Shown piece by piece: positions 23,808 through 34,309 of a stretch of DNA of 64,000 bases. A model generated the notes under the pieces. The model searched no databases. It was not told the DNA's origin and was given only the letters and a program-made list of their open reading frames with translations. Positions within the stretch are counted from its first letter, which is position 1. Each line of letters starts with the position of its first letter. The DNA is taken from the NCBI GenBank assembly GCA_024653345.1, contig JANLFV010000001.1:84387-148386 (forward strand), read 5' to 3'. Both the position numbers and the translations under genes were made by a program. Source of the stretch: Candidatus Acetothermia bacterium. Its GTDB lineage: Bacteria > Bipolaricaulota > Bipolaricaulia > RBG-16-55-9 > JANLFV01.

Positions 23808-24956
23808 ATGCCGGTCTATGTCGTGCATTACAGCGAGATCGCCCTAAAGGGGAAGAATCGGGCCTACTTCGAGGAGGCGCTCGCCCGGAATATCGCGCTG
23901 ATGCTCAAAGGCCATGGCGAGGTGAAGGTCCGGAAGAGATACGGCCGACTGCTTGTCGAGGGCGAGGGCGCTCTCGACCGCGAAGCGCTCCAGTTGATCC
24001 CGGGGATAAAGTCGTTCGCCCAAGCCGAGAGAGTGGAGCTTGACCTGGAGGCCATTGCGACGATGGCCCTCCGCCTGGCCCAGGGGGAACAGGCCAACTC
24101 GTTCATGATCCGGACGAAGCGCTCGGACAAGTCCTTCCCGCTCACCTCGCTGGAGGTCAATCGGCTGGTGGGGGAGCGGGTCGCGCGCCAGACCGGGAAG
24201 ACCGTCTCCCTCACGGCACCAGAGCTCACGATTCACATCGAGATCTGCAGCGATGAAGCCTATCTCTACAAGGAGATCGTCCCCGGCCTCGGCGGCCTCC
24301 CCGTGGGGACCTCGGGGCGAGTGATTGCCCTGGTCTCCGGGGGGATCGACAGCCCCGTGGCGGCCTTCCTGATGATGAAGCGGGGGTGCGAGGTCATCCT
24401 CCTCCACTTCTTCAACGAGACGATTCACTCCCTGAAGGTCGGGGGGAAGCTCGCCTCCCTGGCGGAGCGGCTGGCCCACTTCCAGGGCGAGACCAAGCTC
24501 TATATGGTCCCCTTCGGGGGCCTCCAGCGTGAGATCATCAAGGCTGTCCCGGCGAGGTATCGGATGCTCATCTACCGGCGGACGATGATGCGGCTCGCCG
24601 AGGAGGTCGCCCGCCTCGAGGGGGCCAAGGCCCTCGTCACCGGGGACAGCCTGGCCCAGGTCGCGAGCCAGACCCTCGACAACCTGCGGGTGATTTATGA
24701 GGCCACCGGCTTGCCCGTCCTGGCACCGCTGATCGGCTCCGACAAGGAGGAGACGATCGCCCTCGCCCGGAAGATCGGGACCTACGAGATCTCGATCTTG
24801 CCTTATGAGGACTGCTGCTCCTTCATGGTCGCGCCCCACCCCGAGACCCACGGGGATCCCCAGACCATCGCCGCGCTACAGAAGGGCCTGGCCTTGGACC
24901 TCGCCGACGCGATCAGTCGGGCCGAGATCGAGTCCTTCGGCCCAAACCGGGCTTAG
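23808..24956 (+). CDS. thiI: tRNA 4-thiouridine synthase ThiI.
   Basis: THUMP-like N-domain and the PP-loop SGGIDSPVAA. Confidence 0.9.
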   Translation: MPVYVVHYSEIALKGKNRAYFEEALARNIALMLKGHGEVKVRKRYGRLLVEGEGALDREALQLIPGIKSFAQAERVELDLEAIATMALRLAQGEQANSFMIRTKRSDKSFPLTSLEVNRLVGERVARQTGKTVSLTAPELTIHIEICSDEAYLYKEIVPGLGGLPVGTSGRVIALVSGGIDSPVAAFLMMKRGCEVILLHFFNETIHSLKVGGKLASLAERLAHFQGETKLYMVPFGGLQREIIKAVPARYRMLIYRRTMMRLAEEVARLEGAKALVTGDSLAQVASQTLDNLRVIYEATGLPVLAPLIGSDKEETIALARKIGTYEISILPYEDCCSFMVAPHPETHGDPQTIAALQKGLALDLADAISRAEIESFGPNRA

Positions 24957-24979
24957 CCCCCGTCTGTTTGGGGGCCCAC

Positions 24980-25003
24980 CCGAGGAGGGGTCCCTCCCCT
25001 CGG
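24980..25003 (+). terminator. GC-rich hairpin just downstream of the thiI stop, with no U-tract.
   Basis: ccgaggagggg tc ccctcccctcgg forms a ~10 bp stem. There is no T-run, so it is only a candidate. Confidence 0.25.
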
Positions 25004-25163
25004 CCCAGGCCGAAAGACCGTTGGACTTGGGCCGAGATCGATGGTAAACTTATGTCGCTTGATGGGCTAAGCTTCTTGCATGGCTTAAGCCCAAGTGGCT
25101 CGAGACGGGACTCCCCAGCCGGGGCGGCTCGAGCCTCAGGCCGCATAAGATGAGCATGAGGAG

Positions 25164-25394
25164 ATGATCGGGATGCACGAGAGAGTAGAAGCGGCACTGG
25201 AGCAGATCCGGCCGATGCTGCGGGCCGACGGCGGGGATGTCGAGCTTATTGATGTCACCGACGATGGGGTCGTCCTAGTGAGGCTTATTGGGGCCTGCGG
25301 CGGCTGCCCGATGGCCGCGATGACCCTCAAGGAGGGGATCGAGCGGCTCCTCAAGGAGGAGGTCCCCGAGGTCCAGGCCGTCGAGGCCGTCTAG
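25164..25394 (+). CDS. NifU-like Fe-S cluster scaffold domain protein (Nfu-type).
   Basis: CGGCPMAAMTLK CxxC motif and the conserved Nfu C-terminal domain. 76 aa. Confidence 0.8.
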   Translation: MIGMHERVEAALEQIRPMLRADGGDVELIDVTDDGVVLVRLIGACGGCPMAAMTLKEGIERLLKEEVPEVQAVEAV

Positions 25395-25590
25395 AGGATA
25401 GCATAGCTCGCATCCGAGTGATAACCTCCTGGCGGGCCTTGAGCCCGGTCCTGTCCCGACTTTGCTCCGCCTTCGTCTTCCCCTAGCCTACCCGGGGTCG
25501 GTACCGGCATCTCACGGCACCTTGCCCGGGTATTAGGCCAGCTTGTGTATGTGGCAAAACCTCTGAATCAATAGGGAAAATGGGCATCAC

Positions 25591-25619
25591 TTGCCGAGGC
25601 CGGGTCGCGGTGCTATAAT
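25591..25619 (+). promoter_or_regulatory. Sigma70-type promoter: TTGCCG, 17 nt spacer, TATAAT, upstream of the copper operon.
   Basis: The -35 TTGCCG (25591-25596) and a perfect -10 TATAAT (25614-25619) with 17 nt spacing, followed by the RBS AAAGGAG and an ATG at 25668. The surrounding intergenic region is AT-richer than the coding DNA. Confidence 0.5.
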
Positions 25620-25631
25620 CTGCTGGCTGAA

Positions 25632-25645
25632 CCCACCCGAGGTGG
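25632..25645 (+). promoter_or_regulatory. GC-rich inverted repeat CCCACCcgaGGTGG downstream of the -10; a candidate CsoR-type operator.
   Basis: Seen directly in the sequence. It resembles the GC-rich pseudo-palindromes bound by CsoR-family repressors, and a csoR gene terminates this operon. Confidence 0.3.
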
Positions 25646-25667
25646 AGTCGGCAAGAAAGGAGCGAAG

Positions 25668-26363
25668 ATGCGGGGAAGGGGCAAGGCTTGGATGGTCGTT
25701 GGGATCGTAGCTCTGGGGTTACTCTCTGGCGGGGCCCTTGGCCTCACTTACGGGACCCCCTGGGGGTCGGCTGGCGGAGGGATGATGGGCGGCTGCCCCA
25801 TGGGTGGGCCAGGGATGGGCTGGTATCCGGGCTTCGTGGCCCAGGACATGGCGCAGGCGGCCCAGGCCGCGCAACTGTATGTGGCGGCCTTCTGGGGCGA
25901 GCCCGATCTTGCGGTCAAGGAGGTCATGGAGTTCTCCAATCAGTTCTATGTCCAGATCGAGGAGCGGAGCACCGGCCTCGGGGCGATGGAGCTCTTGGTA
26001 GAAAGGCCCAGTGGCCTGGTCCATCCCGAGCCGGGGCCGAATATGATGTGGAACCTCAAATACGGCCATATGGCCCGGGGGATGGGCATGATGGGCCGGT
26101 GGCAGGGCTGGCAGGCCCCGCCGGCCGGGATGCCGCTCAGCCCGGAGCAGGCCGAGCAGCTCGCCCAGCAGTATCTGGATGCCTATATGCCCGGCGCAAA
26201 GGTTACTGAAGAGATCACGCCATTCTACGGCTACTATACCCTCGATCTTGAGAGAGCTGGCCGGATCTTTGGGATGCTCTCGGTCAATGGCTTCACTGGC
26301 CAGGTCTGGTATCACCACTGGCACGGCCAATTCCTGGGGATGTGGGAGCCCGAGGGGCATTGA
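25668..26363 (+). CDS. Secreted Met/His-rich protein, a putative periplasmic Cu(I)-binding protein.
   Basis: Signal/TM segment, then Met-rich motifs MMGGCPMGGPGMGW and HMARGMGMMGRW, and a His-rich C-terminus VWYHHWHG. First gene behind the promoter. Confidence 0.4.
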   Translation: MRGRGKAWMVVGIVALGLLSGGALGLTYGTPWGSAGGGMMGGCPMGGPGMGWYPGFVAQDMAQAAQAAQLYVAAFWGEPDLAVKEVMEFSNQFYVQIEERSTGLGAMELLVERPSGLVHPEPGPNMMWNLKYGHMARGMGMMGRWQGWQAPPAGMPLSPEQAEQLAQQYLDAYMPGAKVTEEITPFYGYYTLDLERAGRIFGMLSVNGFTGQVWYHHWHGQFLGMWEPEGH

Positions 26364-26993
26364 TTGAACCGAGTCCAAGCGACCGCTAGGACCCAGGCCC
26401 GCTACGACCGGCTCGCGCCGGTCTACGACCTTATGGGGGCCCTGATGGAGCGGACCGCCCAGAAGTGGCGGCGGCTCCTCTGGGAGGAGGTCGAGGGGGA
26501 GAGCATCCTAGAGGTCGGGGGGGGCACGGGGAAGAACATGCCCTTCTACCCTAAGGGCCCGAGGATCACGGCCATCGACCTGAGTGAGAGGATGCTCCAG
26601 CGGGCGCGGCGGCGGGCCGCGCGGCTCGGCTTAGAGGTCGAGCTCCGCCAGATGGATGTCCAGGCCCTCGATTTCCCCGATAAGTCGTTTGATATCGTGG
26701 TAGCGACCTTCGTCTTCTGCTCCGTCCCCGATCCCGTCCTCGGCCTGCGGGAATTAGGGCGGGTCGTGAAGCCCCGGGGCAAGATCTTGCTCCTCGAGCA
26801 CATCCGCCCGGAGTGCCCCTGGCTCGGGAGGCTCTTCGACCTCTTGAATCCCCTAGTCGTCCGCCTCTTCGGGTTCAACATTAACCGCCGCACGCTCTTG
26901 AGCCTCGCCGAGGCCGGGCTGAAGCTCGACTTCGTGAAGGATCTGGACAGGCTGGGCATCTTCAAGCTGATCGGGGCCAGACCGAGCGCTTAA
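26364..26993 (+). CDS. Class I SAM-dependent methyltransferase (Methyltransf_11/UbiE-like).
   Basis: Motif I ILEVGGGTGKN and a post-I acidic residue. 209 aa. TTG start abutting the upstream stop. Confidence 0.8.
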   Translation: MNRVQATARTQARYDRLAPVYDLMGALMERTAQKWRRLLWEEVEGESILEVGGGTGKNMPFYPKGPRITAIDLSERMLQRARRRAARLGLEVELRQMDVQALDFPDKSFDIVVATFVFCSVPDPVLGLRELGRVVKPRGKILLLEHIRPECPWLGRLFDLLNPLVVRLFGFNINRRTLLSLAEAGLKLDFVKDLDRLGIFKLIGARPSA

Positions 26994-27001
26994 GGAGGAA
27001 G

Positions 27002-27229
27002 GTGAACAGGATGCCTGAAAGGGTAAGGGACCCCGTCTGCGGGATGGAGCTCGAAGAGGACCAGGCGGCGGCGACCTACGAGTATAAGGGCAAGACCTAC
27101 TATTTCTGCGCTCTCAGCTGTCGGGAGGAGTTCGAGCGAGATCCAGAGAAGTATCTCGGCAAGGAAACTGAGGAGCATCGCAGGCGGAGGGGCCGGTTCT
27201 GGCGAGGCCTGATCGGCAGGTGCCATTAA
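27002..27229 (+). CDS. YHS-domain metal-binding protein.
   Basis: DPVCGMEL...YYFCALSCREEF YHS/TRASH-like motif. The alternative start at ATG 27011 has a better RBS. Confidence 0.75.
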   Translation: MNRMPERVRDPVCGMELEEDQAAATYEYKGKTYYFCALSCREEFERDPEKYLGKETEEHRRRRGRFWRGLIGRCH

Positions 27230-27251
27230 CTAAAGGAGAGGAGGTGCGATT

Positions 27252-27314
27252 ATGTGCCCACCGTGCCCACTGTGCCGAGGCGGAGCTAGGGCAAAGCGGG
27301 TCAGGAGGGCCTAG
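27252..27314 (+). CDS. 20-codon Cys-rich mini-ORF MCPPCPLCRGGARAKRVRRA. It may be a leader or metal-binding peptide; translation is unproven.
   Basis: Strong RBS AAAGGAGAGGAGGTG 5 nt upstream of the ATG. Three Cys in CPPCPLC. Its stop codon sits in the loop of a perfect 9-bp hairpin. Confidence 0.25.
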   Translation: MCPPCPLCRGGARAKRVRRA

Positions 27315-27323
27315 GCCCTCCTG
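27302..27323 (+). promoter_or_regulatory. Perfect GC-rich hairpin caggagggccTAGgccctcctg spanning the mini-ORF stop. A second imperfect hairpin follows at ~27338-27368.
   Basis: A 9-bp perfect inverted repeat seen directly. It lies between the YHS gene and the RBS of the PCYCGC gene. Confidence 0.3.
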
Positions 27324-27384
27324 GCCCTTCGAGGCGGCTTGCCCGCCGAGCTGCTAAGCGGCGGCAAGAACAGGAGGTGAGCGA

Positions 27385-27933
27385 ATGAAGAAAGGTCAAC
27401 AGAAGAGGCTGCTCTGGGCCGGGGCGAGCCTAATAGTGTTATTCCTCGGGCTCCTCGGCCTCTTCCTCTCCGGGAAGATCGGCGACGAGGAAGGCGCGAA
27501 CCGGTTCACGATCGGGGGCTATACCTTGCCCCGGGCGCTCCCGGATTACGCCCGCCGGGACAACTATACCCTCGCGAGCTATATGACCGCCCTAGCGATG
27601 CCAAGGGCGCTGGAGCACATCCCCTGCTACTGTAGCTGCGATGCGGCCGGCCATGAGAATCTCGCCGACTGCTTCCTCGAGGGCAAGGGGTTCACCGCAC
27701 ATGGGGCGAACTGCGGGATCTGCAAGGTCGAGGCGGCCAAGGCCGCTGAATTGTTGCTGAAGGGGGCTTCGATAAAGGAGGCCCGGGCCCTCATCGAGCA
27801 ACAGTTCGGGAACGGCCACTACGGCCGGCCGACGCCCACCCCGCCGATCGCGGAGGATCGCTATCTCAGTGAGCTAGCACCCGAGCTCGACCGCGAGGCC
27901 TTCCAACGGGCCTTGAAGGAGTTGTTCGAATAG
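27385..27933 (+). CDS. PCYCGC-motif domain protein, a membrane-anchored putative metal-binding protein.
   Basis: N-terminal TM helix, then HIPCYCSCDAAGHENLADC and a further CGIC motif. Confidence 0.6.
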   Translation: MKKGQQKRLLWAGASLIVLFLGLLGLFLSGKIGDEEGANRFTIGGYTLPRALPDYARRDNYTLASYMTALAMPRALEHIPCYCSCDAAGHENLADCFLEGKGFTAHGANCGICKVEAAKAAELLLKGASIKEARALIEQQFGNGHYGRPTPTPPIAEDRYLSELAPELDREAFQRALKELFE

Positions 27934-27947
27934 GAAAAGGAGCAAAG

Positions 27948-28586
27948 ATGGGGATCCAGAGAGGCATCAACAGCAAGGAGCTTGCCGCAATCTGGCGGCC
28001 GATACTGGTGCTCGCCGGCCTGGTCTTGCTCTTTCTGACGGTCCTCAATAGTGCGATGCCCTCGGCAGCCTCGGGCGGGCCGGCGGTAGACGGAGTGATC
28101 GGCCCGGAGGAATATCAGTTCCACTACGCCGACCCGGACATCGGGATGGAGGTCTATTGGGCAATCACTGACCACGACTTCTATATCGGGCTCAGGGCCC
28201 CGGCCAAGGGGTGGCTCGCCCTCGGCCTCTACCCCGGGATCCCTCCCGAGGCCGAGGGGATGAAAGGGGCGGACATCTACATCGCCTATGTGAGCGGAGG
28301 TCGGGCCTTCGGCGGGGACCACTTCGCCGATAGCCTCTTCGGCCATCAGCCGGATACCGCGCTGGGCGGGACCGCGGACATCGCCGAGCTCGCCGGCTCC
28401 GAGGAGGCCGGCTCTACCACCATCGAGTTCAAGCGGGCGCTGAACACACTGGACAAGTTCGACGCCGATCTGCCCGTCCGCGGGCTGGTCTACCTCGCCT
28501 ACGCCGAGGCCGACGACTTCGCGCGGATCCACACAGCCCGGACCGAGGCGATCTTCAACTTCGCCACCGGAAGGGTGGAGAAGTAG
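27948..28586 (+). CDS. Membrane-anchored protein with a DOMON-like beta-sandwich domain (tentative).
   Basis: N-terminal TM helix. The extracytoplasmic domain has a DOMON-like aromatic/His pattern (FHYADPD...YWAITDHDFYIGL). Assignment from pattern memory only. Confidence 0.35.
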   Translation: MGIQRGINSKELAAIWRPILVLAGLVLLFLTVLNSAMPSAASGGPAVDGVIGPEEYQFHYADPDIGMEVYWAITDHDFYIGLRAPAKGWLALGLYPGIPPEAEGMKGADIYIAYVSGGRAFGGDHFADSLFGHQPDTALGGTADIAELAGSEEAGSTTIEFKRALNTLDKFDADLPVRGLVYLAYAEADDFARIHTARTEAIFNFATGRVEK

Positions 28587-28649
28587 GGGAGGGTGGGCTG
28601 ACCAAGGTCCCCGGCAGGCTGGGATTCTCAAGAGAAGGAGGAGTAAACG

Positions 28650-29057
28650 ATGGAGGAGAAGGGGCCTCGGGCACAAGCAAGTGAGCGGCCGATCGCGGCC
28701 TTCGTCCTCGCGCTCCTAGCTGGCTTGTGGATGGTAGCGGCAGGAGGAATGATGGCCGGTTTCGGCTGGGGCGCGGGCGGGATGAGCTGGATGTGGGGCC
28801 ATGGGATGATGGGCCGCTTCGGAAGCTTCGCTTCACCTTCGCCCTGGTGGCCCTGGCTCGGGCTCATCGCGGGTATCGTTGTCCTGGTCGGCGCGACGAT
28901 GCTCTACGCCCGGCCGAAGCAGGCCCAGGGGTGGGGGATCGTCATCCTGGTCGCCTCAGCGCTCAACCTCTTCCTGGGGATGGGCGGCATCCTCGCGAGC
29001 CTCCTCGGCATCATCGGCGGGGCACTGGCCCTGGCCGGCGGATCGAAGGGCAGTTGA
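28650..29057 (+). CDS. Small integral membrane protein with a Gly/Met/Trp-rich loop.
   Basis: Two or three TM helices flanking [31 protein letters not shown] before the ATG. Confidence 0.45.
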
Positions 29058-29070
29058 AAGAGGTGAAACC

Positions 29071-29643
29071 ATAAGTTACGACCTGATCATCCTCGGCTCA
29101 GGCTCGGCGGCCTTCGCCGCGGCCCTCAAGCAGCTGGGGGTCGAGGTGGCGATGCTCACCGGGGACAGCCGGGCCGTTGCCGAGTGGGTCGCCGGGGAGC
29201 TCGGCCTGGATGTGGTCTTCGCCGAGGTCAAGCCGGAGGAGAAGGCGGCCAAGGTGAAGGAGCTCCAAGCCCAAGGGAAGGTCGTGGCGATGGTGGGCGA
29301 TGGGATCAACGACGCCCCGGCGCTCGTCCAGGCCGATGTGGGGATCGCCATCGGCGCGGGGACCGATGTGGCGATCGAGTCAGCCGATGTCGTCCTGGTG
29401 AAGAACGACCCCCGGGATGTGGTCAAGCTGATCCGCCTCTCCCGGGCGACGATGCGCAAGATGCGCCAGAACTTGGTCTGGGCTACGGGCTACAACGCCG
29501 TGGCCATCCCCGCCGCGGCCGGGGTCTTCTACCCCCTGGGGCTGGTCCTCCGCCCGGAGTGGGGGGCGCTGATCATGGCCGCGAGCACGCTGATCGTCGC
29601 CGCTAACGCGCTCTTACTGCAGCGGGCTCGGCTGGAGGTTTAG
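29071..29643 (+). pseudogene. Truncated duplicate of the C-terminal ~190 aa of a copper P-type ATPase (a copA fragment with no plausible start codon).
   Basis: Its translation matches the hinge/TM region of the downstream CopA (residues ~640-829) almost co-linearly: [34 protein letters not shown]. It lacks the N-terminal HMA, CPC and DKTGT regions. There is no in-frame ATG/GTG near its 5' end. Confidence 0.55.
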
Positions 29644-29661
29644 GCTGGACTAGGGAGAGGA

Positions 29662-32151
29662 GTGATGAGCATAGAGAAGCTGGAGCTGAAGATCTCCGGG
29701 ATGACCTGCGCCTCCTGTGTAGCCAGGATCGAGAAGGGCCTCTCCGCGCTGGACGGCGTGGTGGAAGCCAGCGTCAACCTGGCCACGGAGCGAGCTAGGG
29801 TGGGCTTCGATCCCTCCAAGACCCGGCCTCAGGAGCTCGTCAAGGCCATCGAGGAGCTCGGCTATGAGGTCGAGCTGGCAAAGCTCAGCCTCCCCATCCA
29901 GGGGATGACCTGTGCCTCCTGTGTCAGGAAGGTCGAGGAGGCCTTGAAGGGCGTTCCAGGGGTCATCAAAGCCAGCGTCAACCTGGCTACGGAGCGGGCT
30001 ACGGTCGAATATCTCCCCGGTGTGGCCGGCCTGCAAGACCTCAAGCGGGCCGTCCATGACGCTGGCTATGAAGTCCTGGAGGTCGAGCCAGAAGCTGCCC
30101 TGGAGCGGGAGGAGCGGGCCCGGCGGCAGGCCTACCTCGGGCTGAAGCGGAAGCTCAGCCTCGGGCTCGCGCTCACCGTTCCCATCTTCCTCCTCACTTA
30201 CGCCGATCCCTTGGGGCTCGCGGCGCTGATCCCCTGGCGGCTCAATTCCCTCTTGCAGCTCCTCCTGGCCACGCCGGTCCAGTTCTGGGTCGGCTGGCAG
30301 TTCTACCGCCGGGCCTGGGCCGCGGCCAAGCACAAGACCGCTGATATGAACACCCTCATCGCCGTGGGGACCTCCGCAGCCTATATCTACAGCATGGTCG
30401 CCACCTTCTTCCCCGGGCTATTCGCCGCCGAGGGCCTGGGGGCCCATGTCTACTTCGACACCGCTGCGGCGATCATCGTCCTGATCCTCTTAGGAAGGCT
30501 CCTCGAGGCCCGGGCCCGGGGCCGGACCTCGGAGGCAATCAAGAAGCTCATGGGCCTCCGGCCGAAGACCGCCCGGGTCATCCGTGAGGGCCAAGAGGTC
30601 GACATCCCCGTGGAGGAGGTCGCGGTCGGGGAGATCGTCGTCGTGCGCCCGGGGGAGAAGATCCCCGTCGATGGGATGATCGTCGAGGGCTACTCCTCAG
30701 TCGATGAGTCGATGCTCACCGGGGAGTCCCTGCCGGTGGAGAAGGGGCCCGGATCGGAGGTGATCGGGGGGACGCTCAACCGGACCGGCTCCTTCAAGTT
30801 CAGGGCGACCAAGGTGGGGAAGGAGACGGCCCTGGCCCAGATCATCAGGCTGGTCGAGGAGGCCCAGGGCTCGAAGCCCCCGATCGCCCGGCTCGCGGAC
30901 ACCATCGCCGGCTATTTTGTCCCCGCGGTCATCGGGATCGCCTTGCTCACTTTCATCGCCTGGCTCCTCTTCGGCCCCGAGCCGCGCCTTACTTATGCCT
31001 TGCTCAACTCGATCGCTGTCCTGATCATCGCCTGCCCCTGCGCCCTCGGGCTGGCCACCCCCACTTCGATCATCGTCGGGACGGGGAAGGGGGCAGAGCA
31101 CGGCATCTTGATCCGCGGCGGCGAGGCCCTGGAGACGGCCCATAAGCTGGATGCGATCGTCCTGGACAAGACCGGGACCCTCACTCGCGGCGAGCCCCAA
31201 GTCACTGAGGTCATCTCGCAAGACGGCAATGAGGAGGCGGTCCTGGCCCTGGCCGCCTCCGCGGAGCGGGGCAGCGAGCACCCCCTGGGGGAGGCGATCG
31301 TCCGGCGGGCTCAGGAGCTGGGGCTCGAGCTAGCCGATCCGGAGGAGTTCGAGGCCCTCCCTGGGAGGGGAGTCCGGGCCCGGGTCGATGGCCGAGAGGT
31401 CCTCTTGGGGAACCTCCGGCTGATGGAGGACGAAGGGCTCGATCTTGGAGGGCTGGGCGAGGAGGCCGCGCGGCTCTCCGCGGCGGGGAAGACGCCCATG
31501 TTCTTAGCCGTTGATCGAAGAGCGGTGGGGATCATCGCCGTGGCCGATACCCTGAAGGAGGGCTCGAAGGAGGCGGTGGCAGCCCTCAAGGGCCTGGGCC
31601 TCGAGGTGCTCATGATCACCGGGGACGACCGCCGGACCGCGGCGGCGATCGCCAGGGAGGCTGGGCTCGAGCCCGACCGCGTCCTGGCCGAGGTCCTCCC
31701 TCAAGACAAGGTCTTGGAGATCAAGAGGCTCCAGGCCCAGGGCCTGCGGGTGGCGATGGTCGGGGACGGGATCAACGATGCCCCGGCCCTGGCCCAAGCG
31801 GATGTGGGAATCGCGATCGGGACCGGGACGGATGTGGCCATGGAGGCCGCGGACATCACCCTGGTCGGGGGCGACCTCCGCGGGGTGGTCACGGCCATCG
31901 CTTTGAGCAGGGCCACGATCCGGAACATCCGGCAGAACCTCTTCTGGGCCTTCTTCTACAATGCCATCCTCATCCCTGTGGCTGCGGGGGTCCTCTATCC
32001 CTTCTTCGGGCTCTTGCTCTCCCCGATCTTCGCCGCCGCGGCGATGGGTGCCTCCTCGGTGACCGTAGTGAGCAACGCCCTCCGGCTCCGGCGGTTCGCG
32101 CCCCCGCTAGGGCGGGGAGTGCGGGTCGCTCCCGCTCCTATTGAAGCCTAG
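29662..32151 (+). CDS. copA: Copper-translocating P1B-type ATPase.
   Basis: Two N-terminal HMA domains (GMTCASCV twice), the CPC motif ([10 protein letters not shown]), [17 protein letters not shown] and HP. 829 aa. Confidence 0.95.
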
Positions 32152-32212
32152 GGCGGGCTCTGTTACGATCAATCCGATCCCCAAAAAGGATCGGCTGGGA
32201 AAGGAGCGGACA

Positions 32213-33001
32213 GTGAAAGGCTTCATCTCGATGAGGTGGTCGGCCCTGGTCATCGGGCTGGTCCTGGCCGGGGGGTTCTTCCTCGCCGGGCTCTTCACCC
32301 ATGAGTTGATCTTCCCCCAGCGGGGCTTGGAGGAGTTGAAGGCCCGGGTCGCAGAGCTCCAGGGGCAAGTGAAGGCCCTGAGTGAGCAGGTGGCCAAGCT
32401 AGCGGCCCAAGCCCAAGCTCCGGCCCAGGCTCAGGCCCAGAGGCCCGAGGGGCCGGAGCGGGTCGAGGTGAGCGTCGACGACGACCCCGCGCTCGGGCGG
32501 CCCGAGGCCCCGGTGGTGATCGTGGAGTTCTCCGACTTCCAGTGCCCCTACTGCGCCCGGTTCGCTCAACAGACCTTCCCCCAGCTCAAGAAGGAATACA
32601 TCGATACCGGGAAGGTGCGGCTCGTCTTCCGCGACTTCCCGCTCTCGTTCCACCAGAATGCCGCGCCGACGGCCGAGGCGGCCCAGTGCGCCCACGAGCA
32701 GGGCCGCTTCTGGGAGTATCACGACCGGCTCTTCGCCGGGCAGGGGGAGTGGTCCGGGAGCGCCAGCGCCAGCCAGATCTTCGCCGGCTATGCCGAGGGG
32801 CTCGGCCTGGATGGGGCGAGGTTCCGCGAGTGCCTCGCCTCCAGGCGCTACAAAGAGGAGGTGCAGCGGGATTTCAATGACGGTATAGGCTACGGCGTGA
32901 CGGGGACCCCGACCTTCTTCATCAACGGGCGGAAGCTCGTCGGGGCCCAGCCGTTCAGTGCCTTCCAGCAGATGATCGAGGCCGAGCTGAAGGGAGGATA
33001 G
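32213..33001 (+). CDS. Membrane-anchored DsbA-like thiol:disulfide oxidoreductase (thioredoxin fold).
   Basis: TM helix, a coiled-coil linker, then FSDFQCPYCARF (CPYC active site) and the DsbA-family C-terminus. Start chosen at a GTG with a nearby AAAGGAG; ATG 32231 is the alternative. Confidence 0.8.
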   Translation: MKGFISMRWSALVIGLVLAGGFFLAGLFTHELIFPQRGLEELKARVAELQGQVKALSEQVAKLAAQAQAPAQAQAQRPEGPERVEVSVDDDPALGRPEAPVVIVEFSDFQCPYCARFAQQTFPQLKKEYIDTGKVRLVFRDFPLSFHQNAAPTAEAAQCAHEQGRFWEYHDRLFAGQGEWSGSASASQIFAGYAEGLGLDGARFRECLASRRYKEEVQRDFNDGIGYGVTGTPTFFINGRKLVGAQPFSAFQQMIEAELKGG

Positions 33002-33005
33002 AGAG

Positions 33006-33308
33006 ATGGCCCAAGGAGCGGCCCTGAAGAAGGGGAGCTTGGCGGTCTTCCCCGAGGTCAAGCGGGGACTCCAGCGGAGGATGCGGACCGTCGTCGGCCA
33101 CATCCAGGCGATCGAGCGGATGATTGAGGAGGAGCGCTACTGCGTCGAGATCTTAAAGCAAATAGCGGCCGTCCAGGCCCAGCTCTCGAACATCGCCCAT
33201 GAATTGACCAAGAGCCACATGAAGGGCTGCCTCACCGGGGCGATCCACGCCGGCCACGGCGAGGAGGCGATCGAGGAGCTGGCCGAGATCCTCAAATACC
33301 TCCGCTAG
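33006..33308 (+). CDS. csoR: CsoR/RcnR-family metal-sensing transcriptional repressor.
   Basis: GHIQAIERMIEEERYCVEILKQ...HMKGC with the conserved Cys/His ligand positions of the CsoR family. Confidence 0.85.
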   Translation: MAQGAALKKGSLAVFPEVKRGLQRRMRTVVGHIQAIERMIEEERYCVEILKQIAAVQAQLSNIAHELTKSHMKGCLTGAIHAGHGEEAIEELAEILKYLR

Positions 33309-33315
33309 AGCCCGC

Positions 33316-33344
33316 TTGACTGGGGCGCCACCGCTCTATATAAT
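33316..33344 (+). promoter_or_regulatory. Consensus sigma70 promoter (TTGACT, 17 nt, TATAAT) for the pst operon.
   Basis: TTGACT at 33316-33321 and TATAAT at 33339-33344 with exactly 17 nt between. It lies 57 nt upstream of the pstS ATG. Confidence 0.55.
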
Positions 33345-33348
33345 CCGG

Positions 33349-33369
33349 CTGTGACATATATAGTCACAG
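33349..33369 (+). promoter_or_regulatory. Perfect 7-7-7 palindrome CTGTGAC-ATATATA-GTCACAG immediately downstream of the -10; a candidate operator.
   Basis: Seen directly. Its position at +1 to +25 relative to the promoter is typical of a repressor site. Confidence 0.4.
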
Positions 33370-33400
33370 ACCAAACTATAGATTAAAGGGGTGGTTCACT

Positions 33401-34309
33401 ATGGGCAAGCGGCTCCTCTGCTCGATCCTCCTCGGCCTGTTGTTCCTCGGGCTCCAAGCCGGTGCGCGCTCCCCGGCCGAGCTGAAGCTCGAGGGCTCGA
33501 CGACGGTGCTCCCGATCGCCGGGCGGGCGGCCGAGCTCTTCCAGGCCCTCTACCCCGAGATCTGGGTCACCATCAAGGGCGGCGGCTCCTCGGTCGGGAT
33601 CGCGGCCCTCATCAACGGGACGACCGACATCGCCAACGCCTCGAGGGCGATGAAGCCCGCGGAGCTGGCCAAGCTCCCCACCGCGGTGGAGCACGCGATC
33701 GCCAAGGACGGGATCGCCATCGTCGTCCATCCCAGCAACCCGATCGAGGGGCTCACCCTCGAGCAGATCGCGGAGATCTACACCGATCCTTCGATCAGGA
33801 ACTGGAGGGAGCTCGGCGGGCCCGATCTCCCGATCGTGGTGGTCTCCCGCGACACGACCTCCGGGACTTACGGCTCGTTCATCGAGCTGGTCATCGAGCC
33901 TGTGAAGGGCAAGGGTGCGCAACTCCGGCCGGACATCATCTATGTCGGCTCGAACGCCGAGGCCGTCGCGACCGTCGAGGGCGCGGAAGGTGCGATCGGC
34001 TACATCGGGCTCGGCTACCTGAAAGAGAGCCTGAGGCCCCTCCCGGTCTCCAAGGGCGGCGGGCCCTACATCCTGCCGACCGCCCGAGCCGTCCTCTCCG
34101 GGAGCTATCCGATCAGCCGCGACCTCTACATGTATACCGATGGGGTCCCGGATCCGCGCGAGCCGAGAGGGCTCTGGCTCGACTTCATCTACAGCCGGAC
34201 CGGCCAGTGCGTCGTCCTCGAGCAGGGGTTCGTGGCCTTCTACCCCATCGATCTCGCGGTTTGCGAGGCCCTCTTTTCGGCCCTGGGGAGCGAGTTCATT
34301 AAGAGATGA
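33401..34309 (+). CDS. pstS: Phosphate ABC transporter substrate-binding protein.
   Basis: Signal peptide, a PBP-like_2 family pattern (GSTTVLP...GGGSSVG...YPI) and its position before pstC/A/B. Confidence 0.9.
   Translation: MGKRLLCSILLGLLFLGLQAGARSPAELKLEGSTTVLPIAGRAAELFQALYPEIWVTIKGGGSSVGIAALINGTTDIANASRAMKPAELAKLPTAVEHAIAKDGIAIVVHPSNPIEGLTLEQIAEIYTDPSIRNWRELGGPDLPIVVVSRDTTSGTYGSFIELVIEPVKGKGAQLRPDIIYVGSNAEAVATVEGAEGAIGYIGLGYLKESLRPLPVSKGGGPYILPTARAVLSGSYPISRDLYMYTDGVPDPREPRGLWLDFIYSRTGQCVVLEQGFVAFYPIDLAVCEALFSALGSEFIKR

Follow-up and report, generated by a model that had tools for sequence, protein, structure and literature searches.

A 20-codon open reading frame (ORF) with three cysteine codons among its first eight lies between the genes of a YHS protein and a PCYCGC-domain protein in a stretch of 64,000 nucleotides (nt) from a Candidatus Acetothermia bacterium (Bipolaricaulota; contig JANLFV010000001.1), hereafter the window, from the first letter of which all positions are counted. 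The reading that we tentatively prefer is that this micro-ORF is a genuine micro-protein cistron of a soft-metal operon and is closed by a terminal messenger RNA (mRNA) stem-loop. According to this reading, (i) the micro-ORF would be a real cistron, led by its own ribosome-binding site (RBS), of a CsoR-type soft-metal (Cu/Hg-like) operon in a small Bipolaricaulota clade; (ii) the product would be a cytoplasmic peptide of 15–21 residues with an N-terminal CPxC thiolate motif (CPPCPLC in the window), a Gly/Ala linker, and a cationic Ala/Arg/Lys tail; (iii) the likeliest role of the peptide would be that of a small dithiol that binds a soft metal (Cu(I), Hg(II), or similar), alone or as a metal-bridged dimer, the alternative being a CPxC redox dithiol acting alongside the neighbouring YHS protein; (iv) the hairpin would be the 3′ stem-loop of the micro-cistron, probably a 3′-end stabiliser or a leaky U-less terminator, and would set the ratio of the upstream cytoplasmic to the downstream envelope cistrons (PCYCGC, DOMON, and CopA); and (v) in the lineages of the window and of a related contig, L015, the stem would have come to overlap the last five codons, which would have put the stop codon in the loop.

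The micro-ORF and its relatives

The sequence directly 5′ of the micro-ORF start codon is AAAGGAGAGGAGGTGCGATT-ATG, in which the Shine-Dalgarno (SD) sequence reads AAAGGAGAGGAGGTG. Most long ORFs of the window follow this same signal, 27 of the 43 GGAGG-N4-10-ATG sites in the window being at the head of ORFs of at least 60 codons. The combination of an SD, an ATG, and a short ORF is by itself unremarkable: the window has 13 such sites, that is to say, 12 distinct ORFs of at most 40 codons. What sets the micro-ORF above chance is its intergenic position, its hairpin, and chiefly its conservation in other lineages. A preliminary description of the window had pointed out a Cys-rich 20-codon ORF, a strong RBS, and a TAG stop in a hairpin loop, and the sequence and the ORF list agree with it on these points.

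The cysteines of the predicted peptide are located at residues 2, 5, and 8, with none adjacent, and its C-terminal half is composed of Ala, Arg, and Lys. Neither a hydrophobic segment nor a signal peptide was found in the micro-ORF peptides of the window and of the related loci (15–21 amino acids (aa)), whose C-termini are RRA, RKK, and RERR. No other ORF in the window combines an SD, a CxxC in the first residues, and at least 4 basic residues, and in the related loci this pattern is found solely in the micro-ORF homologues. The peptide matched no Pfam or NCBIfam model even at E = 10, and searches of the PDB and, with tblastn, of plasmids gave nothing significant. A concatenate of three micro-ORF peptides found neither a match nor a longer protein with a similar N-terminus in a collection of 5.8 billion proteins. 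In the GTDB genomes, a degenerate micro-ORF DNA pattern gave a single type of match, a longer ORF with the zinc-finger-like motif CPCCGGAKLSKIGED, which we take to encode an IS66-type transposase.

Word-indexed searches with the PCYCGC and YHS proteins returned five other PCYCGC clusters and two close YHS clusters, that is to say, a small clade, and their contigs have the gene order of the window. Homologous SD-led micro-ORFs of 15–21 codons, encoding M-C-P-x-C, a short linker, and an Ala/Arg/Lys tail, are present in three other lineages. An SD of the GGAGG or GAGGTG type with a spacing of 6–8 nt is kept in all three (L015, L006, and L008), and the spacers themselves are 42–64% identical to those of the window (L015 and L006). 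One of these lineages comprises the contigs L015, L016, and L017 together with L010 and L011, all from the same SRR277300xx samples (YHS 72% and PCYCGC 78–80% aa identity to the window). Its micro-ORF follows the YHS gene as GAAAGGAGGG-N8-ATG and encodes MCPPCPLC(S/P)GGAKAKGAKRRA; the L015 peptide is MCPPCPLCSGGAKAKGAKRRA, and L016 and L017 read ...LCPGG.... In L006 (PCYCGC 71% aa identity), the micro-ORF reads AAAGGAGGG-N6-ATG and encodes MCPFCRGGARRARKK, with CPFC as its motif. In L008 (YHS 74% aa identity), only 20 nt of spacer are left between the YHS gene and the PCYCGC gene, with no micro-ORF; a micro-ORF (GAGGTG-N6-ATG, MCPLCIAKAKARNRERR, with CPLC) lies instead between the Met-rich gene and the methyltransferase gene. 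The L008 and L015 micro-ORFs have the 13-nt string GCTAAGGCGAAGG in common, so the L008 copy is the same element at another site. Judged from this comparison, the L008 operon has kept a copy of the micro-ORF despite the changed position. The residual spacer at the old position (...acATGAGGTAAacggATG) looks like a deletion that spared the start codon of the micro-ORF. In the same contig, the micro-ORF and hairpin unit occupies 1789–1883, an IS110-family transposase gene is adjacent (108–1025), and the PCYCGC gene is truncated to 129 aa.

Two lineages with a PCYCGC gene do not have the micro-ORF, namely the syntenic L002 (PCYCGC 70% aa identity), with a spacer of 54 nt, and L007 (65% aa identity). 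A PCYCGC alignment search yielded no further loci in the GTDB genomes and only L008 again and two unrelated loci of 36% identity in the JGI metagenomes. More distant YHS genes from other phyla (P0010, P0013, and P0016) are in tight, unrelated neighbourhoods with no room for a micro-ORF.

The differences between the lineages are of a coding type. The nucleotide identity between the window and L015 is 81% in the micro-ORF, 62–64% in the adjoining spacers, and 56% in another intergenic region; peptide identity is 16/20 (80%, counted by hand), beside 72–84% for three flanking proteins, and the flanking genes are 65–78% identical at third codon positions. Codons 1–8 and 10–12 differ from those of L015 by one change, which is synonymous. 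Three single-base changes in conserved codons (TGC/TGT, GCA/GCG, and GCC/GCT) are silent in this frame but alter the residue in each of the other two, and Arg9 (CGA/AGG) and Gly10 (GGC/GGT) are retained between the window and L006 through synonymous changes. The inter-lineage indels, a 9-nt tandem unit (TGCCCACNG) and 3 nt, are in frame. In the tail, the basic composition is kept among lineages and the sequence varies. The micro-ORF frame alone is open, begins with a start codon, and persists throughout the four lineages; in the +1 and +2 frames, the start codon is missing or early stops occur in some lineages. The Cys/His-rich +1 frame (GTG 27244 to TAA 27357, MRLCAHRAHC...) was rejected on these grounds, with no start in L015, a stop after five codons in L008, and non-synonymous substitutions. 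A frameshift or read-through joining YHS, micro-ORF, and PCYCGC was likewise rejected, because the frames differ and stops intervene. Conserved translation signals, a conserved frame and residue pattern, and coding-type substitutions, which together mark a small-protein gene, were thus found in four lineages, a small sample. On the strength of this comparison, we consider it rather probable that the micro-ORF is translated and under selection.

The stem-loop at the stop codon

The micro-ORF stop codon is located in an exact palindrome, CAGGAGGGCC-TA-GGCCCTCCTG (27302–27323), which occurs once in the window, with 0 expected and no occurrence in shuffled sequences. In the RNA, the stem extends to 13 pairs (GGGUCAGGAGGGC/GCCCUCCUGGCCC) around the loop CUAG, with a folding energy of −30.3 kcal/mol (z = −5.25 against dinucleotide shuffles); 0 of 200 shuffles were as stable. 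Five perfect hairpins of at least 9 base pairs (bp) exist in the 64 kb, and this one alone lies outside long ORFs. Hairpins of the form GGAGGG...CCCTCC are not enriched in the window (2 found, 1.1 expected), and a repeated element was rejected as an explanation because the palindrome is single-copy there.

Joined end to end, L015 and L010, which homology with the window and the extra pairs formed suggest to be adjacent, give a hairpin of 10 bp, a 2-nt bulge, and 5 bp, with the TAA stop in the loop (AGAGGAGGGC-UUAA-GCCCUCCUCU). The inner eight pairs are identical to those of the window, and the next two are changed on both sides in a compensatory way (C-G to G-C and U.G to A-U). In the Logan assemblies, all contigs of this group break at the hairpin, L015–L017 at their 3′ ends and L010 and L011 at their 5′ ends, and single-nucleotide polymorphisms lie within the micro-ORF (Ser/Pro at residue 9). 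The break in the assembly falls at the palindrome or at the strain variation, and similar elements may for this reason be hidden in short-read assemblies. The L008 hairpin is a perfect stem of 12 bp (GGUGGGGGGACC-cgcu-GGUCCCCCCACC; −31 kcal/mol, z −3.67) that begins 13 nt after the stop codon. The stems of the window and L008 have unrelated sequences and the same place relative to the micro-ORF. A strong hairpin at or just 3′ of the stop is thus present in three of the four lineages, and stable stems that are unrelated in sequence argue for selection on an RNA stem-loop and not on a protein-binding DNA operator. The preliminary description had made its reading depend on conservation of peptide and hairpin in orthologous loci. 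That check is passed with qualifications: the peptide is found in four lineages (relocated in one) and the hairpin with the stop in its loop in two, the window and L015.

The stem is followed by CUUCGAGGCGG, which contains no U-run, and a terminator scan finds nothing there; a U-run follows none of the stems of the lineages. Of the two features of an intrinsic terminator, the GC-rich stem-loop is therefore present and the 3′ U-tract absent. In the scanned segments of the window, however, hairpins with a T-run are at or below chance (1 found vs 2.1 expected, 5 vs 9.4, 7 vs 9.2, and 2 vs 7.9), and the missing U-run is therefore uninformative and neither supports nor excludes termination; sigma-70-like promoters in the scanned segments are enriched 2- to 6-fold. 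Transcription in this Bipolaricaulota genome is probably terminated through Rho or U-less hairpins.

The second, imperfect hairpin that had been described between the stem-loop and the next RBS can indeed be drawn, but it is no more stable than shuffled sequence, is not conserved in L010, and is probably no functional element. A further structured region was seen on the + strand after the thiI stop (24955–25045; −50.9 kcal/mol, z −3.35). It is strongly structured and U-less and contains the hairpin GGAGGGGUCCCUCC, whose SD/anti-SD-like composition is that of the micro-ORF hairpin.

The earlier suggestion of a leader-peptide attenuator or Cys-tRNA sensor was not supported. Attenuators of the trp/his type have a leader ORF that comes after the promoter and before any structural gene; here, three cistrons precede the micro-ORF. 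The U-run expected after a terminator hairpin is absent, with the caveat given above, the cysteines are spaced as CxxCxxC and not consecutive, and no mutually exclusive folds are selected at the Cys codons. Between the last Cys codon and the stem lie 23 nt, so that a ribosome stalled at any of the Cys codons would leave the hairpin intact; in simulation, a ribosome footprint on Cys codon 5 or 8 left it folded. When the 5′ arm in the window was blocked (P-site near codon 16), the 3′ arm (CCUCCUG) paired with the PCYCGC SD (CAGGAGG), and the probability that this SD is unpaired dropped from 0.44 to 0.02. Identical blocking of the L015 and L010 composite produced no such switch. An SD/anti-SD switch, the one alternative pairing that came to light, was therefore rejected as a conserved mechanism, being predicted in the window only, and no conserved alternative-structure mechanism emerged at the micro-ORF.

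The surrounding operon

The operon is encoded on the + strand in the order Met-rich protein, class I methyltransferase, YHS protein, micro-ORF, PCYCGC protein, DOMON protein, and membrane protein, followed by an ORF with an ATPase fragment, CopA (29662–32151), a DsbA-like protein (CPYC), and CsoR (33006–33308). The genes of ThiI and NifU lie upstream of the promoter-like site on the same strand. Ten neighbouring genes (25164–29643 and 32141–33308) were scanned with Pfam. The PCYCGC protein is 100% identical to a protein of a Candidatus Acetothermia (Bipolaricaulota) metagenome-assembled genome, and the same contig is found in JGI sample 3300038743. The coordinates of the main features are listed in Table 1.

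Table 1. Positions of the micro-ORF, its stem-loop, and neighbouring features in the window.
Feature	Position	Strand	Evidence or remark
Likely operon promoter TTGCCG-17-TATAAT (TG-extended; 25591–25619) and CsoR-like operator candidate CCCACCCgaGGTGG	25591–25645	+	Promoter scan
YHS/TRASH-type metal-binding protein, 72 aa, upstream cistron	27011–27229	+	Pfam PF04945, E = 3e-17
SD region AGGAGAGGAGGT (GGAGG 27240–27244, 7 nt before ATG)	27234–27245	+	Sequence
Micro-ORF, ATG, 20 codons and TAG (27312–27314), MCPPCPLCRGGARAKRVRRA	27252–27314	+	Sequence and ORF list
Cys-motif codons C2-P-P-C5-P-L-C8	27255–27275	+	9-nt in-frame tandem repeat (TGCCCACCG TGCCCACTG) vs single CPxC of L006 and L008
Linker (R-G-G-A) and cationic Ala/Arg/Lys tail	27276–27311	+	Last five codons (from G27298) are the hairpin 5′ arm
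GC-rich stem-loop, 13 bp, loop C-UAG with micro-ORF stop	27298–27327	+	GGAGG in 5′ arm, CCUCC in 3′ arm
Second imperfect hairpin	about 27331–27368	+	z = −0.45 vs shuffled sequence
SD (CAGGAGG) and ATG of PCYCGC gene	27371–27387	+	SD complementary to hairpin 3′ arm CCUCCUG (27317–27323)
PCYCGC-domain protein with N-terminal membrane anchor, downstream cistron	27385–27933	+	Pfam PF13798, E = 7e-19

The likely operon promoter is the sole promoter-like site on the + strand within 25000–30000 and lies ~1.6 kb upstream of the micro-ORF, and the promoter scan found no + strand site in the 155-nt spacer between the YHS and PCYCGC genes. Directly 3′ of the promoter is an inverted repeat, the L015 counterpart of which (CCCACCCGGGGAGGGGTGGG, about 1540–1586 of L015) is conserved and extended. 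By its resemblance to CsoR operators, we take this repeat to be a candidate CsoR site, which would place the entire operon under CsoR control. The micro-ORF thus lies inside a metal operon in which a transcriptional metal sensor, CsoR, is already encoded. An Rfam scan of 24000–31000 with E up to 1 gave no match.

Several further observations were made at this locus. A weak promoter-like match on the minus strand (TCGGCA-18-CATAAT, 9/12; 27249–27278) overlaps the micro-ORF start; no minus-strand gene is near, and the match is probably due to chance. Immediately 5′ of the intact CopA gene, a chimeric ORF (28879–29643, +) joins a MerA-type FAD-binding start to the C-terminus of a P-type ATPase (HAD and membrane part; Pfam Hydrolase). 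The syntenic L002 has no such fragment, and the ORF looks like a rearrangement scar that hints at a merA-like gene in the ancestral locus. In L007 (503–4125), the PCYCGC gene is flanked by genes of a methyltransferase-DUF302 fusion, a YgaP-like membrane protein, and a MerA-like flavoprotein reductase. The pair of methyltransferase and PCYCGC genes, which is conserved, may thus be as much part of a mercury or other soft-metal system as of a copper one. Downstream of the operon (33316–33375, +), a perfect inverted repeat (CTGTGAC-ATATATA-GTCACAG), probably an operator, lies behind a near-consensus promoter (TTGACT-17-TATAAT) and ahead of a gene (33401–34309) that, by eye, we take to encode a PstS-like phosphate-binding protein.

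Known systems and competing explanations

Three kinds of regulatory ORF resemble the micro-ORF in part. CruR of Bordetella pertussis (DUF2946; about 145 aa) has a CXXC 45 residues before a C-terminal RAPP arrest motif (residues 139–142, three residues from the C-terminus), its CXXC is outside the ribosome tunnel, and it controls Rho-dependent termination (PMC9426467). CutF of Rhodobacter capsulatus has a Cu-binding motif and a stalling motif, is exported cotranslationally, and works with a stem-loop that shields the RBS (PMC9973294). The micro-ORF likewise encodes a CXXC (CPPC/CPLC in the window, CPFC in L006, and CPLC in L008), in a copper-homeostasis operon upstream of envelope metal-handling genes, with a stem-loop or termination event before the next gene. 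By contrast, CruR and CutF are DUF2946 proteins with an export signal and, at a conserved distance of about 45 residues from the CXXC, a C-terminal RAPP or Pro-rich arrest motif, whereas the micro-ORF peptide has neither a signal peptide nor an arrest motif and shows no DUF2946 match and no homology to them; unlike that of CruR, its CPxC, at residues 2–5(8), would still be in the tunnel at termination. The metal-sensing leader that had been proposed earlier therefore differs from the known Cu-sensing ORFs, and we retain it only within an unlikely explanation weighed below. In mycobacteria, leaderless polycysteine small ORFs (sORFs) with consecutive Cys codons are cysteine-responsive attenuators, in which the stalled ribosome blocks an RBS-sequestering duplex and genes of cysteine metabolism are controlled (bioRxiv 10.1101/834739). 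Like the micro-ORF, they are very short, encode cysteines, precede genes of an operon, and have an RNA duplex in their vicinity. However, they are leaderless, contain at least 2 consecutive Cys codons, and precede cysteine-metabolism genes, whereas the micro-ORF is SD-led and operon-internal, has its cysteines spaced as CxxC(xxC), and precedes the metal-handling genes of PCYCGC, DOMON, and CopA. With CruR, CutF, and these sORFs, the micro-ORF shares only the idea of a Cys motif, a short ORF, and a stem-loop, and none of their defining features that could be checked is found in it.

At the protein level, the closest kind, by analogy, is that of the C(P)XCG zinc-finger micro-proteins of Haloferax volcanii, which are under 70 aa (about 40–70) and in which two knuckles jointly bind one Zn (PMC10716476). 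These are also tiny proteins whose sole recognisable feature is a knuckle of the CPxC(G) type (CPLC-RGG and CPFC-RGG in the micro-ORF peptides). Only in size does the micro-ORF product fit them fully: it has one knuckle (L006 and L008) or an overlapping CxxCxxC (window and L015) with a basic tail instead of two knuckles, would have to dimerise or find a partner to complete a tetrathiolate site, and has no detected homology to the Haloferax proteins. An intermolecular CxxC metal site of that kind is known in the Rad50 zinc hook. The same dithiol motif is found in the CxxC metallochaperones CopZ/HMA and MerP and, as CPxC, in the oxidoreductase sites of glutaredoxin (CPYC/CPFC) and DsbA (CPHC), which are folded domains of 70–200 aa. 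Here, it occurs beside a CopA ATPase, a YHS protein, and a DsbA-like protein; a peptide of 15–21 aa, however, is too short for such a fold and matches no family model. A precursor of a ribosomally synthesised and post-translationally modified peptide, as had also been proposed, is unlikely: such precursors have an N-terminal leader, a C-terminal Cys/Ser/Thr core, and a maturation enzyme, whereas the cysteines here are at the extreme N-terminus (residues 2–8) and the sole possible modifying enzyme among the scanned neighbours is the class I S-adenosylmethionine-dependent methyltransferase.

As for the stem-loop, intercistronic hairpins that stabilise mRNA or partially terminate transcription are known from pufBA-pufL of Rhodobacter and from the REP elements in malEFG. 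The likeness lies in a stable GC-rich hairpin between cistrons, right after the gene of a very small product, with differential product amounts as a possible outcome. The micro-ORF hairpin differs in that it overlaps the coding sequence, and each translating ribosome must unwind the stem; furthermore, REP elements are repeated, whereas this hairpin sequence is single in the window.

Of the proposals in the preliminary description, the tiny thiolate peptide is the one favoured by the conservation evidence. Several points nevertheless weigh against a micro-protein cistron. Over the whole micro-ORF, 3–4 of ~12 nucleotide changes between the window and L015 are synonymous, which is near the neutral expectation, and clear constraint is limited to the N-terminal 8 codons and the GGA/A(K/R) core. 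The micro-ORF is absent from L002 and L007 and is therefore dispensable. L006 has no significant hairpin (z 0.43), and the hairpin of the window is without a U-run, although this is uninformative in this organism. No homologue or family was found across Pfam, NCBIfam, the PDB, the protein collection, plasmids, and GTDB genomes, and the four lineages compared are closely related and all metagenomic, with 15–21 codons each. As far as these sequences go, the conservation is real but narrow. The same near-neutral tail (counted by hand) and the same absences would suit a non-functional leftover, that is to say, a decaying relic, such as the 5′ remnant of a zinc-ribbon or metal-binding gene since lost, or a chance ORF beside an unrelated intercistronic or terminator-like hairpin. 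Other rearrangement scars at these loci (the chimeric MerA-like/ATPase fragment in the window, and the IS110 copy and truncated PCYCGC gene in L008) and the ~12 chance combinations of SD, ATG, and short ORF per 64 kb are also consistent with it. We nevertheless consider a leftover unlikely: four lineages keep a well-spaced SD, an ATG, and an open frame next to spacers that have fallen to 42–64% identity where measured, the changes in the conserved core are synonymous in the micro-ORF frame only, the indels are in frame, L008 has a copy at a new site after loss of the old, and no longer protein with a similar N-terminus turned up in the large protein collection with the concatenated query.

A regulatory upstream ORF, in which translation of the micro-ORF would matter and its product would not, appears doubtful. 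The ribosome would melt the hairpin to reach the stop in its loop; its translation, on which Cys-tRNA supply, slowing at Pro-Pro or poly-basic codons, or metal on the nascent CPxC might act, would decide whether the hairpin forms, and the state of the hairpin would in turn decide whether transcription or translation goes on into PCYCGC-DOMON-CopA. This explanation would account for the stop-in-loop geometry kept in two lineages with compensatory changes, for the strong hairpin after the L008 micro-ORF, and for the predicted sequestration of the PCYCGC SD when the 5′ arm is blocked in the window, and precedents exist in CruR (PMC9426467), CutF (PMC9973294), and the Cys-codon sORF attenuators (bioRxiv 10.1101/834739). 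However, sequestration is not predicted in L015 and L010, L006 has no significant structure, and the L008 stop lies 13 nt before the hairpin, where a terminating ribosome would barely touch the stem. A ribosome pausing at the Cys codons leaves the hairpin folded, and the peptide is conserved at its N-terminus and variable at its C-terminus, the opposite of arrest peptides. From the length of the tunnel, the peptide would be too short for CPxC to exit, compared with the spacing of 45 residues in CruR (PMC9426467). The ORF is, moreover, internal to an operon that already has a CsoR gene and a candidate operator. Improbable, in our view, is a role at the DNA level, with the 22-bp palindrome as an operator (CsoR, ArsR, or MerR type) or as the end of a recombining or mobile element and the ORF as incidental. 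In the window (GGCC-TA-GGCC) as in L015 (GGGCTTAAGCCC), the perfect dyad does continue into the loop, which an RNA hairpin does not need, a CsoR gene lies within the operon, and the unit of micro-ORF and hairpin is not at the same position in all lineages. Against these stand the lack of a + strand promoter-like site in the spacer, the better CsoR-like candidate at the operon promoter, the single occurrence of the palindrome in the window, and the unrelated stems of the window and L008 and missing stem of L006, which fit selection for pairing and not for a sequence that a protein recognises. A reading of the flanks brought no terminal repeats to notice, although no search aimed at them was made. 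Very improbable indeed is a peptide that acts as a minimal metal-responsive regulator of its own transcript, in which CPxC would bind Cu(I), Hg(II), or Zn(II) and the tail its own GC-rich hairpin. The RGG/Arg-rich tail can be likened to the arginine-rich RNA-binding peptides of lambda N or Tat. Such binding, possibly by two metal-bridged peptides, would govern how much read-through into the PCYCGC-DOMON-CopA part of the mRNA occurs or how stable that part is; in a related variant, the nascent peptide would sense the metal while the ribosome melts the hairpin.

If either version of this self-regulation were true, a metal switch would be built from an ORF of 15–21 codons and one stem-loop, and if the micro-ORF were regulatory, it would be a third type of Cys-motif upstream ORF in copper operons, unrelated to CruR and CutF. 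Bipolaricaulota (Acetothermia) are known almost only from metagenomes, and the grammar of their operons is poorly known. If the peptide is made, as a micro-protein cistron would imply, it would be among the smallest dedicated gene products in a metal-homeostasis operon, one that no described family matches, and would add another case to the growing list of unannotated micro-proteins.

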